A stretch of DNA of 64,000 nt from Candidatus Freyarchaeum deiterrae (GCA_037305845.1 CP147778.1:1856001-1920000), one strand, 5' to 3'; numbered from the stretch's first letter, positions 18,440 through 36,100 are shown. The notes: a model not told the origin generated them from the sequence alone. Numbers and translations: made by a program.

Positions 18440-19816
18440 ATGAAACTCCCAAAAGAAAATACAAACAATAAAAAGTCGAAAGCAGGGACACCACCCGCAC
18501 CACCGACATCACCCGCGGCAGGGACACCACCCGCACCACCGACACCCCTCGAAGGAAATCTAACCTTCGAAGCAAAGACACCCCCCGCAGCAACGCCAAC
18601 CCCCGAAGCAAAATCAATAATGGACGGTTATTCCGAAGAAGATAAAAAGTTAATAGAATTAATAATAGAAGTATATTCCCAAAATTTTATAGAAAAATTT
18701 CCTAAAAGAAAGAAGGAGGAGGAGGAGAGGGAGAAGAAGAAGTTAACGGAGGAGGAGAAGGAGGAGGCGAAGGGGAAGATCGAAACACTATTACTTATAT
18801 TGAGAGAGGAGGAGGAAGAGCAGGAGAAGAAGCAGAAGGAAAAGGAGGAGGAGAGGGAGAAAAAGAAGTTAACGAAGAAGCAGAAGGAGGAGGAGAAGCA
18901 GAAGGAGAAGGAGAAGGAGGAGGAAATGAAATCTCCACTGCGTGGACTTGCTTTGCTCTTTTTAGACTACGAAAAAGTCGAAAAGAAATATTTGCCCAAA
19001 CAAGAAAAAATAGAAGAAATAACGGGTAAAGGGGGACAAGAGGGGAAAGATCTCTATGAGTATATAAAAAATGAAATTTATGGAATCACAATTCATAAAC
19101 TAATATTAAAAATTTATGATCAGCGTCTCGAGAGAGTAACTGAAAGAAAGGAAAGAATCAATAAGAAATTGGACGAAATGGAAGACAAGAGTTACGGTTG
19201 GGTTGCTAAAAATTCCAAGAGATTATTTTGGATCGGTGTAGCTATTGTTTTTTCATCTATACTTATACCCTTAGGAGTTTGGATTTTATCCTCTTGGACA
19301 TTTTGGCAATTACTTAGTACTATTCCAGTATACGCACTAATTGCAACATCCACATCAACACCAGCAATATACACAACATTACCTGCAATAATCACATCAT
19401 TACCCTGGCAACAATTAAATAACACATCCCTAATCTCAGGAGGAATAGGCGGAACAGTAGGCCTAAGCACTATAATTACAACCTTGATTAAAGGAGCATT
19501 CCAAGAAATAAAGAGCGCCTCATTAGACAGAGTCCAAGTTACACTACTCCAAGATGCGTATCGTGACAAAATCAGGAAGATAACAATACAACTAGAACGA
19601 GATCTATACGATATAGTTGAAGAGAATCCGGCAAAGAAGAAAACGGAAGAGGAGAAAAACAATCAATGGAAGTATTTCTTTGATGTGGAAAAAAAATTTT
19701 ATCAAGATGAAGCTCAAATATATGAAGAATTAGCAAACGATCTACAAAAATACGTCGAAGGCATTATAAAAACCGAAAAGAGTAACAACAAAGATAGTAA
19801 CAACCAAAAAGAGTAG
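18440..19816 (+). CDS. Hypothetical membrane protein with Pro/Thr and Glu/Lys low-complexity repeats
   Basis: 458-aa ORF, AGTPPAPPT x2, KEEEREKKKLT x2, 2-3 TM segments; GAGGCGG upstream. Confidence 0.6.
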   Translation: MKLPKENTNNKKSKAGTPPAPPTSPAAGTPPAPPTPLEGNLTFEAKTPPAATPTPEAKSIMDGYSEEDKKLIELIIEVYSQNFIEKFPKRKKEEEEREKKKLTEEEKEEAKGKIETLLLILREEEEEQEKKQKEKEEEREKKKLTKKQKEEEKQKEKEKEEEMKSPLRGLALLFLDYEKVEKKYLPKQEKIEEITGKGGQEGKDLYEYIKNEIYGITIHKLILKIYDQRLERVTERKERINKKLDEMEDKSYGWVAKNSKRLFWIGVAIVFSSILIPLGVWILSSWTFWQLLSTIPVYALIATSTSTPAIYTTLPAIITSLPWQQLNNTSLISGGIGGTVGLSTIITTLIKGAFQEIKSASLDRVQVTLLQDAYRDKIRKITIQLERDLYDIVEENPAKKKTEEEKNNQWKYFFDVEKKFYQDEAQIYEELANDLQKYVEGIIKTEKSNNKDSNNQKE

Positions 19817-19984: not shown

Positions 19985-21601
19985 TCAGGTACCCTCAGCC
20001 CAACCATGAATATACGCATCCTGCTCTGGAGTCAGAACATCCAACTTAAGACCCATAGCCGCGCACTTTAATTGAGCCACAGTATTATCAATCGCTTCGG
20101 GAATATCCAAAACAACACTGCCCATCTTAGACAAAGACTCCCTGTTCTTGACAATATACTCTACCGCCAAAGCTTGGTCTGAGAAGCTCATGTCCATAAC
20201 CTTACCAGCCACATGCATAGTAAAAACTCCCAAAGGTGTTGGTTTATTGTGGGATGACATTTTTTGATTTGACTCAGTATCCCTCTGCTTAACACTTCTA
20301 CATAATGGTGTTAAGGGAGAACTAGAAATACTGGTCCACAATCCGCCACCACAGCAAGTTCACACATCTAGAAGTTTTAATTAAACATGTGGTCACTGGG
20401 GTGCCCCTCTGCACAAGCTAGATTCACAAGTCTGCCTTGTCCGAGTAGGTAAATTTTTCTTCCGTCTTTCATTGTGTATTCGTCGACTAGTGGTCTCAAC
20501 TCTCGTTTGCTGACACTGAGTTTCTCTAGGTCCGGTATGTTTATTTCGACATTGAAGTGCCCAGTGTTACAAATTGTCGCCCCGTTTTTGAACTTCTTCA
20601 TATGCTCTGCGTTAACCACGTTTTTACAGCCCGTAGCTGTGACGAAGATGTCGCCTACCTCAGCGGCTTCTATCATGGGCATCACATCGAATCCCTCAAG
20701 TGCAGCCGTTAGCGCTCTGTGTGGGCTAATCTCGCAGATGATAACTCTTCTGGCGCCTAGTCCCTTGGCTCTTATCGCTACGCCTCTACCGCAATGACCA
20801 AAACCAGCGACTACAAAAACTTTACCTGCTATAAGATCCGCTGTTGCTCTTAGTATGCCGTCGATGGTGCTTTGTCCGGTTCCCCACAGGTTATCAAATT
20901 TGGGCGCAAACACTTCAGCGTTTACGTTTCCCATTTTGTGGGGGTGTCGTTAGTGGCTAAAATCGGATAGAGTAATACATTATCTTTGGCCATAGCCCTC
21001 AACCGAACAATTCCGGCCATATGTTTAATAAAAACTCTCAGGGGCATTAATGATTTAACATATGGATTCCGGTCGTGGTTTCTTCGGCTCCGGCCCATAC
21101 GGTGTCTGCCCAGTCTTTTTTTTCTCCTAGGATTTTTTTGACTATTTTTATTTCTTCTCCTGTTTCTCCTCTTTTCAGTTTGATGAGTGTTGATACCAGG
21201 TCGGCGCCGTCGTCCAGAGTAATGTTGGGTTTCGCTTTGATTACGTTGGCTATTGCTCTGTAGTAGCCTTCGTGGTCCATTCCTTTCCAGCCGTAGGTGG
21301 ATATGCCTTCTTTTACCAGAGCTGCGACGACGTGGTCCTGTGTTGATAGTGGATTAGAAGCGCATAGGTAGACCTCAGCGCCGCCTGCTTTCAGGGTTTT
21401 CGCGAGCACCGCGGTCTCCTTGGTTAAGTGGAGGCATGCTCCCACTTTCACGTTTTTGAGTGGTTTCTCTTTGGTGAATCTTTGTTTTACTTGCATGAGT
21501 ACCGGCATGTGTGCTTCTGCCCATTCTATTGTGCTCTGTCCGCTTGGCGCCAATTTCATGTCTTTGACTTCGTATTTTTCTCCTTTTTCTGTTTGTGACA
21601 T
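19985..21601 (-). CDS. ahcY: S-adenosylhomocysteine hydrolase, four exons: complement(join(19985..20202,20394..20898,20928..21010,21067..21601)), 446 aa
   Basis: Spliced product has [75 protein letters not shown]; exons total 1341 nt. Confidence 0.93.
20203..20393 (-). other. 191-nt BHB intron 3 of ahcY
   Basis: CCAG-TG^A-CCACATG...CATGTGG-CTGG-TA^A; restores GHPSEVMD. Confidence 0.88.
20899..20927 (-). other. 29-nt BHB intron 2 of ahcY
   Basis: TGGG-AA^A-CGTAAACGC-TGAA-GTGTTTGCG-CCCA-AA^T; restores KWEFDN. Confidence 0.9.
21011..21066 (-). other. 56-nt BHB intron 1 of ahcY
   Basis: CCGG-AA^T-CCATATGTT...AACATATGG-CCGG-AA^T; restores ETTTGIVRL. Confidence 0.9.
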
Positions 21602-33196: not shown

Positions 33197-36100
33197 TTAC
33201 TGTCTTCGTAATAATGTTTCATGTATTCTGGTCAGGGTGTCTGGGTAGAAGACTCTCATGAGAATTAGGACTACTACCAGTAACCCGAATATAATAGTAA
33301 CTATTCTGCTCAGGGTGTCCATGTCAAATTGACCGCTAGCTGCATTTGCTGTGAGCAGTGACAAGATTGGAATGGGTGACGGTGGCGTTGGGGTAACTAC
33401 TTGGACTGTGAAACTTTCATTAAAGCTTCTACCAGCGTTGTCGGTCACATTTAGGGTGATATTTAGATTGCCGAGAGAACTCGGAGTTATCGGAAGCTCC
33501 GCAATCCCCGTATTATTGTTGTAGAATACTGTTGCATCATGGGATTCGCCATTTAAAAACACTGTTAGATTGGTTAAGTTAACCTGTGGAGTACTTGAAG
33601 CGTTGAAAGGTAGATATCTTACCCATATCTGCAAATTAAACGGTATTCCTAGAGTTAATGTTTCGTTAAGTGTAACATCTGGTTCTATTAGTCCCGCTTC
33701 TAATTGGTACACGTTGAATATGTAATAGTTCTGTGCTAGTGCCTGGTTGCCTATCCCCCTTATCATAATGTTATTACTTGAGTTCGTTGTAACTGATGCA
33801 ATGTATTCCCCAATATCTTGGGGGGTGAAATTTACGTTCCAGTTCTGGAAATCGGTTGTGTTTCCTGAATAATTAAACATCGTGCCGTTGGGGTTGATTA
33901 TGGTTACGGTCAAATTACTTGGGTTATCCAGTACATTTGTAATATTTAACGTGACTGATGTGCCCTTATAGGGCACGATGGTTGATGTAACATTCACTTG
34001 GGAGTAGAAGGTTATTGTAGTGTTCATTGTTTCTCCATTAGAAAGTTCTTGTCCTATGCTTGTAGAGTTGAAGGCGTTTTTGAGTATTGTTATCGTCTTG
34101 GTTATCGAATTTGTAAATGCCTCAGTCCAATTATCTGAAAGAAGGGTGCTGTTGAGAAATATTGTGTTAGCAGCGCTTTGGTTCGCTGCTGGATTATAGC
34201 TGACATACTCAGATTCCTGCGATAAGGAAATAGTCGCATTACTATGCGTATATATACTGGTGAATGTAGAGCCCGAGAATGTGGATGTGTTTGTATAAAC
34301 CATTTGAGCATTAATGGATGCGTTTAAACTGGTGCTGTTCCAATCCTGACTGGTTTGGTTCCAAGCCTTAAAAATTAGCGTAGCTACACCTGTGCTACTG
34401 TTGTATCCCACTTGACTGCTGGTGAAGATTTGACTCCAGTAACCTTGAGTACTGTTAACCATAGAGATATCGTTAATATAAAATAATGTATGGTTACTCA
34501 AGCCGTCACTGTAGTTATAGTAAAATAAATTGTAAGTTAGACTGTATTGGATATCCTTACTACTCGCCAGATTAAAGGTAACGATGCTTCCTGAGGCGTT
34601 TTGTATCGGGGTCCAAACAGTATCATTCCATACCCGATTACCGCCAACGAGTTTATTATTAACGGAGATATTGATACCACTCGTATCTGTCGAATTATAA
34701 GATGTAATCTGCATACACTGCCAGTATCTGTGACCGAACGGGTCTCGGACATCCTTCCAGTTCCAATTGCTAGAATTATCAGGGGTGGTCCATATTCCAT
34801 AGCCCTCTGGCGGAGGAATCTCAAATGCACTAGTATGGCTCGCCCAATCATAAAACTGACCGCTACTCGGATCTCCCGTCCAGTTTTTTGTATGAATTAC
34901 TAGGAAGTAATTTCCTTGTGAGAAATGACCTGTAAAGTTAAGAGTAAGCAAATTATAAGTTGAATTTACGTTCTGGTAAGGCACTTCCAAAGCGACACCA
35001 GTAACATTGCTGCTTAAATTATAAGCCCCAATTGATGAATCGAATGTAGCATTCCAAATCTCGGCAGTGAGGTTTTGCGTTAAACCTGTGGTGCGTAGTA
35101 TCAGTATCTGAATTGTGAGATTGTTCGAGTCATCCGGCAATGTGAACCTTTGAGCTTGGCTCACATTTCCAACGGTGTGTGCGAAGCCGTCTGAATTAGT
35201 TACGTTCTCAATAACGTGTAACTGTGAAACCGGAGTTATACTAGTAAAGTTGATGACGGCAAGATACATCCGATCCCCGTTAGGAATGATGACGTTGAAG
35301 CTACCTGTACCCCCTGTAATATTTCCAGTGGTGCTGCCTGCAATATTATAGTTAATATTACCTGTGTTATTAAAGACATCCACTGAGAGCTGATTCAAAG
35401 TCCAATTCGCTGGGAGCTGCAATGTCAATGTATACTGAAGCTTTGTTAAATTCATTATCATCCAGCAATTGAATGCAACTGAACTTTGAGACCAAAGATT
35501 GGTATCATTTATTTGTTCTATATCTGTGAAATTTTTCAGGTTGAGTGCTAATCCTCCGCTATTAGGAGTACATCCCCAAGTATAATATGTAGTATTGTCG
35601 CTTGAAGTACTAGTATTTAATCTTACCAATATGAAATAAGTCTGGCTTGGGTTCAGCTTAATGGTAGTTTCATTAAGTAGAGTAACCCAATTTCCACTGG
35701 CATTAAAACTGCTATTTGAGTACGTTTGACTTAGCAGAATAGCATCTGATGCGTTACTTGGCACCCACATCGAACCAATCAGGGTTCCATTCCTCAGCTC
35801 TACCCTAAAATCTGGAGGAGACGTATTATTATAGCCTATCCATAGTTGAACACCATTAAAGTATGTTGTAACATTTGAGGTGCTAAATGGCATGGCTACA
35901 GAACTGTTCAAGTTATCGTTCCAAGATATATTGAGATTATTTTCTGGCGGCCCGGTGAGATTACCTTCTATAGTATCCGAGGCCGTTTTATTTGTGATTT
36001 GAAACCATGTTACATTGTAATATGCTCCATTTATTTGGATTGTGGGGTCATTTGTAGTGCCTTTCAGTTGAGGGGGATTCATTTTTTGGCCTGCGGTTAG

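Follow-up and report, generated by a model that had tools for sequence, protein, structure and literature searches.

Introduction

How do bulge-helix-bulge (BHB) introns arise and spread in archaea? Related BHB introns occupy different sites in the tRNA genes of Thermoproteales, a pattern described as "intron transposition" in which gain is thought to take place at the DNA level (Fujishima et al. 2010, as cited in PMC4090602), and that 2014 review gives the mechanism of BHB intron transposition as unknown (PMC4090602). For tRNA introns of Asgard archaea, several routes of arrival, mobile elements among them, were tested in a 2026 preprint, and its conclusion was that arrival "remains open". 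The present study concerns a 64,000-nt stretch of the genome of Candidatus Freyarchaeum deiterrae (GCA_037305845.1, CP147778.1:1856001-1920000), hereafter the window, in which the single-copy gene for S-adenosylhomocysteine (SAH) hydrolase, ahcY, lies on the minus strand and is split into four exons. We propose that the third interruption of this gene, intron 3, is a MITE (miniature inverted-repeat transposable element) whose insertion was made harmless by tRNA-type splicing, a reading to which we assign a probability of about 0.8. The Thermoproteales case is confined to tRNA genes; the locus described here differs from it in presenting 7-bp duplications, inverted ends and many intergenic copies, as expected of a cut-and-paste type element.

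Prokaryotic MITEs are short, non-coding, multi-copy elements with terminal inverted repeats (TIRs), a target-site duplication (TSD) of fixed length and presence/absence polymorphism, and within coding regions they normally disrupt or extend the protein. The ahcY insertion differs in that tRNA-type splicing is predicted to take it out of the mRNA again. The cbf5 pre-mRNA of Crenarchaeota reportedly contains a BHB intron within its coding sequence, where it is said to be processed by the tRNA-splicing endonuclease and a ligase, and we know of no report of a transposon ancestry for it. Placement of a BHB intron within a protein-coding sequence is common to cbf5 and ahcY, but ahcY intron 3 is a lineage-specific, full-length MITE with dispersed relatives that carry target duplications. 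In eukaryotes, Introners are MITE-like transposons that create spliceosomal introns, some of them by co-opting splice sites from the TSD (Gozashti et al. 2022, as cited in bioRxiv 10.64898/2026.07.09.736142). The likeness to ahcY is considerable: a non-autonomous transposon sits in coding sequence, element and duplication together supply the splice signals, one duplication copy is excised and the frame is restored. However, the ahcY route would use the protein-only tRNA-splicing endonuclease and the ligase RtcB acting on an RNA fold rather than the spliceosome and GT-AG signals, and only three genic copies were found, with no genome-scale bursts. Intron 3 works like an Introner, then, but is not a member of that class. 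A full-text literature search returned no paper combining BHB, archaea and MITE.

Results

Intron 3 of ahcY and its splice motif

Joining minus-strand positions 21601-21067, 21010-20928, 20898-20394 and 20202-19985 gives a 1341-nt frame without internal stop, which encodes a 446-aa SAH hydrolase with all expected motifs. The third interruption (20203-20393, 191 nt, minus strand) splits GHPS|EVMD, and its removal gives GHPSEVMDMSF with CCCAGTG|AGGTTATGG as the predicted spliced junction of exons 3 and 4. Its boundaries coincide with the bulges of a BHB motif, not with GT...AG. In what follows, G000 denotes the genome of the window and G001-G005 its five same-genus congeners. The features of the locus, in the order of transcription, are these:

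20394..20898, minus strand: ahcY exon 3 (the 5′ exon), ending ...CAC CCC AGT G at 20394, which encodes ...GHPS and contributes base 1 of the Glu codon; placed by translation, exon joining and alignment to the five congeners
20402-20400 with 20201-20199, minus strand: outer BHB helix h, ACC/GGT, 3 bp, seen in the sequence and paired in the minimum-free-energy fold with flanks
20396..20399, minus strand: exonic strand CCAG of the 4-bp central helix H, the first 4 nt of the putative 7-bp target site CCAGTGA, assigned by the logic of the family
20393..20395, minus strand: 5′ bulge TG^A, with the predicted cut between 20394 and 20393; the congener empty sites stop at exactly the same base
20209..20392, minus strand: MITE body, 184 nt, with inverted ends at 20371-20392 (CCACATGTTTAATTAAAACTTC) and 20209-20230 (GGAGTTTTTACTATGCATGTGG)
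outer 7 bp of the inverted ends, minus strand: inner BHB helix h′, CCACATG/CATGTGG, 7-8 bp, from sequence and fold
20205..20208, minus strand: intronic strand CTGG of the central helix (H′), assigned as the diverged second duplication copy (CCAG to CTGG)
20202..20204, minus strand: 3′ bulge TA^A, with the predicted cut between 20203 and 20202
19985..20202, minus strand: ahcY exon 4, starting AG GTT ATG GAC at 20202, which supplies the rest of the Glu codon and then VMDMSF... to the stop

In mRNA sense the two junctions read ...ACC CCAG TG^A CCACATG... and ...CATGTGG CTGG TA^A GGT..., which is the canonical archaeal hBHBh′ motif. Two 3-nt bulges lie on opposite strands with a 4-bp helix between them, and a cut following the second base in each bulge restores the 446-aa frame. 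The initial annotation had described a 191-nt insert with a BHB and a CCACATG/CATGTGG stem, and this description is borne out both by the sequence and by the minimum-energy fold of intron 3 with its flanks, which reproduces the motif. The genome encodes the required splicing proteins, namely two EndA-domain genes (PF01974, above cut-off) and one RtcB (PF01139, 571 bits). The EndA catalytic domains map to G000:C1:1921033-1921278, ~1 kb past the end of the window, and to G000:C1:1733162-1733422, within open frames of 213 and 205 aa. The presence of two separate EndA genes suggests a two-subunit endonuclease of the broad-specificity kind.

Does the insert remain in the RNA instead? If so, ahcY would either have been recently inactivated or would yield separate polypeptides, with the C-terminal piece starting from the ATG of ...ATGCATGTGGCTGGTAAG just inside the insert; this ATG is in frame with exon 4 and lies 20 nt before the 3′ splice point. 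Against this, the closed genome, scored 100% complete, holds no other ahcY, removal of the insert restores the frame and the GHPSEVMDMSF motif to the base, and ahcY has two other interruptions that likewise call for BHB removal. Moreover, comparison with the congeners gives dN/dS of 0.05-0.10 over all of ahcY and of 0.06-0.13 over exon 4, which lies downstream of the insert, although these values give no date for the insertion because synonymous sites are saturated. We consider an unspliced insert unlikely, and ahcY in this genome is to be annotated as one four-exon gene, neither as fragments nor as a pseudogene. The closest named full-length matches to AhcY in the protein collection come from Asgard lineages; no full-length protein there exceeds 77% identity, and no full-length spliced or intron-less AhcY from the same lineage was found above that value. 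A metagenome search for a nearer ahcY returned a best match of 68% identity, which carries no strain-level information.

Empty sites in relatives

The ahcY gene was fetched from 40 relatives, with the five same-genus loci aligned and 104 further loci drawn from other families and metagenomes. In the alignment, both the 191-nt intron 3 and the 56-nt intron 1 are absent from ahcY in all five congeners, and for both introns the boundaries of the alignment gap agree to the base with the cuts predicted from the BHB motif. At the position of intron 3 the empty site of the congeners reads ...CCAAGCG|AAGTTATGG, and the spliced G000 transcript would read ...CCCAGTG|AGGTTATGG. The gene is uninterrupted at all three intron sites in 101 of the 104 further loci, the exceptions being two truncated contigs and one break at the intron 2 site; one truncated contig apart, no break at the intron 3 site was found among these 104 distant loci. 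By this comparison the 191-nt insert is specific to the G000 lineage. Since the site is empty in all five congeners, there is no homologous intron with which covariation could be compared.

A MITE family in the genus

With intron 3 as query, 400 genomes of the phylum were searched at the DNA level, and two full-length relatives were recovered, both in G005 and both outside ahcY. Their identity to intron 3 over its full length is 73% (E 6e-20) and 70% (E 5e-12), and to each other 94%. When another family member was used as query against the five congeners, dozens more copies were recovered, and a profile hidden Markov model of 47 family members (intron 3 included) matches intron 3 at E 3e-20. 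The family is a MITE of ~185 nt with ends CCATATGTTTA... and the end consensus CCAYATGTTTA...TAAACATRTGG. Its 12-mer end motif, CCATATGTTTAR, is nearly invariant and occurs 13, 0, 44, 12 and 20 times in G001-G005, respectively, with no occurrence of the reversed control; paired end motifs are inverted and ~170-190 nt apart, all pairs falling in that range.

From the congeners, 46 full-length copies were extracted, and the 7 nt flanking each end were compared, with the next 7 nt outward serving as the control. The flanking direct repeat is perfect in 20 copies and matches at 6/7 in 13 more (33/46 in all), whereas the next 7 nt outward never match at 6/7. Target sites have no consensus and are AT-rich (32% GC), and nearly all copies are intergenic. 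Presence and absence are reciprocal within the genus, as the ahcY site is empty in G001-G005 and a tRNA-Arg site occupied in G005 is empty in G000. By these sequence features (short length, lack of coding capacity, TIRs, a fixed 7-bp TSD and differences in presence) the family is a classical MITE. The initial annotation had judged the insert too short for a homing endonuclease, and this stands, as the longest stop-free stretch in intron 3 is 52 codons and is a read-through of the exon 4 frame. It had also offered a relic of a mobile intron as one possible origin; the DNA is indeed that of a mobile element, but of a TIR/TSD transposon and neither of a homing nor of an RNA-mobile intron.

In G000 itself, BLAST, single-sequence nhmmer and family-profile nhmmer searches for other copies returned only intron 3 and, weakly, one arm of intron 1. 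The end motif is not enriched in this genome and no free copies are left there, the two ahcY introns being the sole survivors. Across the genus the family is very uneven: G003 has 44 end motifs, G002 has none, and G000 has none beyond ahcY. Since many copies lie at contig ends, the draft assemblies undercount them. Tandem or nested copies occur at several loci (L056 825-1009 and its neighbor; L045; L070 1307-1685; L107), where one element stands beside or inside another with a shared 7-bp repeat. A further MITE-like arrangement within the window, 194 nt between identical 7-mers with an 8-bp inverted repeat at 34464-34672, was rejected as a chance match because it lies inside an intact 1004-aa open reading frame (ORF) for an Asn/Thr-rich, surface-type protein.

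Genic copies and the origin of the splice motif

Three copies of the MITE lie within genes, namely introns 1 and 3 of ahcY and a copy in a tRNA-Arg(CCT) gene of G005. The first of these is a shortened one:

21011..21066, minus strand: ahcY intron 1, 56 nt, the same MITE after internal deletion, flanked by the 7-bp duplication CCGGAAT in two identical copies

Here the palindromic CCGG forms the central helix and AA^T forms both bulges. The right arm of intron 1 is identical at 23/25 positions to the 3′ end of the copy on contig G005:C104, and ~135 nt of the interior is gone, leaving the ends only. A genome-wide scan of G000 for a 7-mer repeat with an adjacent 8-bp inverted repeat gave six matches, the one at window 34464-34672 among them, which is about the chance level, and intron 1 was the sole real element in the set. 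Short derivatives resembling intron 1 were not found in G001-G005.

The copy at G005:C104:2125-2312 is 73% identical to intron 3 and forms a BHB intron at position 29/30 of tRNA-Arg(CCT), flanked by a perfect duplication, GCGCAGG. With the MITE and one duplication copy, as well as two micro-introns, cut out at the BHB sites, ARAGORN calls a 75-nt tRNA-Arg(CCT), and the G000 orthologue (G000:C1:1511214-1511348) has a single GCGCAGG and no element. This intron belongs to the same MITE subfamily as ahcY intron 3 and is built in the same way, with the inverted ends as the inner helix and the 7-bp duplication as central helix and bulges. The two loci differ in several respects: the tRNA copy has a tRNA host, a perfect duplication and the opposite orientation relative to the host transcript, whereas ahcY is an mRNA host in which a second copy has decayed to 56 nt and the large copy has a duplication whose divergence completes the helix. 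The two micro-introns of tRNA-Arg(CCT) in this genus lie in the D-loop and in the T-loop (TTCG AA^A ... CGAA GA^T), and at both the G005:C104 and the G000 locus ARAGORN misses the gene until they are removed.

The flanks of intron 3 read CCAGTGA upstream, which is coding, and CTGGTAA downstream, of which the first six bases are intronic and free to change. Two of the three differences in the downstream copy (C to T and A to G) turn a central helix paired at 2 of 4 positions into the fully paired CCAG/CTGG. From this we infer that the changes would be a post-insertion improvement of the central helix, and they speak further against an insert that stays in the mRNA, since it is the intronic copy of the duplication that changed at the two positions completing the helix. 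All three genic copies are BHB-competent on the sense strand, compared with 12 of the 46 other copies on either strand (judged by a 4-bp central helix). Given that frequency elsewhere, sense competence in three of three genic copies is unlikely to be due to chance.

Could the direction have been the reverse, such that an old BHB intron became mobile and seeded the family, or moved as RNA through reverse splicing and reverse transcription? The related BHB introns at different sites in Thermoproteales tRNAs, whose mechanism the 2014 review leaves unknown (PMC4090602), would accommodate such a history. The intronic strand of the central helix, however, varies from copy to copy (CTGG, CCGG, GCGC) and matches the local target in each case, which indicates that it was not carried with the element. 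Around intergenic copies the duplicated 7 bp are arbitrary, AT-rich and devoid of BHB potential, the signature of DNA transposition through a staggered cut, and the ahcY site is empty in every relative searched. We regard a reversed direction as extremely unlikely.

One further interruption of ahcY has a different history:

20899..20927, minus strand: ahcY intron 2, 29 nt, a BHB micro-intron unrelated to the MITE

Intron 2 (29-30 nt) is kept in all five congeners, where changes in its stem preserve pairing (an A.A of the congeners corresponds to G-C in G000, for example). It is common to the genus, lacks the MITE signature and predates introns 1 and 3 by far. One genome from another family of the order (L011) is also interrupted at this residue. 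Just downstream of ahcY, a plus-strand ORF (18440-19816) encodes 458 aa with long Glu/Lys-rich repeats and a hydrophobic C-terminal half.

Internal structure of intron 3

An additional question is whether the RNA of intron 3 has a function of its own. The initial annotation had proposed that the insert might be a functional RNA, and one point in favor of this is its fold. Intron 3 alone forms one long imperfect rod of -62.1 kcal/mol, in which the three internal helices that the annotation named are all present; 200 dinucleotide-shuffled versions give -43.3 ± 4.1 kcal/mol, and none of them reaches its stability (z -4.6). A functional RNA selected for the host gene could act as a regulatory circular RNA, as a guide RNA, or as a ligand- or condition-sensing fold that gates ahcY splicing. 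We projected the fold of intron 3 onto the alignment of the 47 copies and recorded the fraction of alignment cells that remain paired. Pairing persists in 94% of cells for the outer terminal helix (outer 8 bp of the inverted ends) and in 64% for the adjacent helix, to which AAAACTTC/GGAGTTTT belongs. For the helix with CAGTATTTCT/AGGGATACTG the value falls to 51%, and for the helix with CTTAACAC/GTGTTAAG to 40%; over the entire intron 3 structure, 60.2% of cells are paired compared with 58.6% in shuffles. Of the three named helices, two lack conservation in relatives and the third is part of the inverted repeat of the transposon; only the terminal helices are conserved across the MITE family. 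RNAalifold found no consensus structure in the 47-copy alignment and, with nine copies, only the terminal stems and two short inner stems.

Most MITE copies fold as a rod or branched rod of their own, which makes rod folding a property of the family. The interior is irrelevant to forming the splice motif, as intron 1 has lost it and still forms a BHB and the tRNA copy is inverted. In haloarchaea, the tRNA-Trp intron carries a C/D-box guide RNA, in which a C box (RUGAUGA) and a D box (CUGA) are joined by a terminal stem. The sense strand of intron 3 has no C box even at one mismatch and a single CUGA at position 117, which gives no support to the suggestion of a guide RNA carrier. Splicing conditional on SAH or S-adenosylmethionine (SAM), likewise proposed, finds no support either, as Rfam returned no match, the intron is absent in 5/5 congeners and the inner helices are not conserved. 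The Rfam comparison gave no match at the gathering score for the window and none at E<=1, riboswitch models included, for the 3.2-kb locus with all of ahcY and for two MITE loci, and a tRNA scan of the window found none. The family, moreover, is mostly intergenic. The internal folds of intron 3 are, on these comparisons, inherited from the transposon family and give no sign of an ahcY-specific function, and we hold a functional RNA selected for the host gene to be very unlikely.

Several points weigh against a MITE insertion removed by splicing and are best considered together. The strand that is sense in ahcY is the more stable one in 40 of the 47 copies (mean -62.6 vs -53.5 kcal/mol), and a central block, TTTTTAACAC...TGTA.AAAA, is conserved across subfamilies; both observations would also favor a functional RNA. 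A possible meaning is that one strand undergoes transcription, or takes up a structure as single-stranded DNA, and some strand-specific function of the MITE itself may exist. The 7-mers flanking intron 3 match at only 4/7 positions, such that its duplication is deduced from the family rather than directly seen. An autonomous, transposase-bearing partner with the same ends was not found in the congeners, whose draft assemblies break at repeats. Lastly, the splicing and circularization of intron 3 are predictions from sequence logic. The family has a fixed internal polarity, and the TATA-like GTATAAAA lies within its conserved central block. The ORFs adjoining unpaired end motifs are ordinary genes (URO-D, SufBD, HEPN/NTase and cyclase).

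Discussion

We hypothesize that a MITE landed in the GHPSE codons of ahcY after the lineage had split from the five sequenced congeners, and that the insertion was tolerated because it creates its own splice substrate. In the pre-mRNA, the inverted ends of the MITE would pair and become the inner helix. Of the two duplication copies, the upstream one (CCAG+TGA, exonic) would contribute 4 nt to the central helix as its exonic strand and 3 nt as the 5′ bulge. The intronic strand and the 3′ bulge would come from the downstream one, now CTGG+TAA, all of which except the last base is intronic. Where the duplicated 7-mer starts with four self-complementary bases, a perfect BHB would exist at once on insertion. 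Cutting by EndA after the second base of each bulge would then remove the element together with exactly one copy of the duplication and leave the original sequence, and RtcB would join the exons to give GHPSEVMDMSF. The intron itself would presumably be circularized, in which case its end, ...GGCTGGTA, would be joined to its start, ACCACATG..., and a circular excised RNA is a reasonable expectation for any BHB intron. The distribution of copies fits a ratchet, in which free copies decay or are deleted and a copy within an essential block of codons can be lost only by exact excision.

More tentatively, since we rate this generalization as possible but short of an even chance, the MITE family in this Asgard genus may create a ready BHB substrate whenever the duplication starts with a palindromic or near-palindromic tetramer. 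Introns of tRNA and mRNA would both result, and would decay by internal deletion (191 to 56 nt in ahcY) toward the 25-35-nt micro-introns that litter the genome. Free copies would be lost, and copies that serve as introns would be locked in place because only exact deletion is tolerated.

The ahcY locus offers a concrete and testable route for the arrival of a BHB intron in an essential protein-coding gene, and three stages can be seen side by side: the transposon as free copies among relatives, at full length as an intron, and reduced by decay to 56 nt. If the MITE route is general, it would answer how BHB introns arise and spread. The parallel to spliceosomal introns made by Introners is drawn here in the archaeal group closest to eukaryotes and, if confirmed, the ahcY introns would be an archaeal counterpart of eukaryotic Introners inside a protein-coding mRNA. 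The birth of archaeal mRNA introns would thereby become directly testable.

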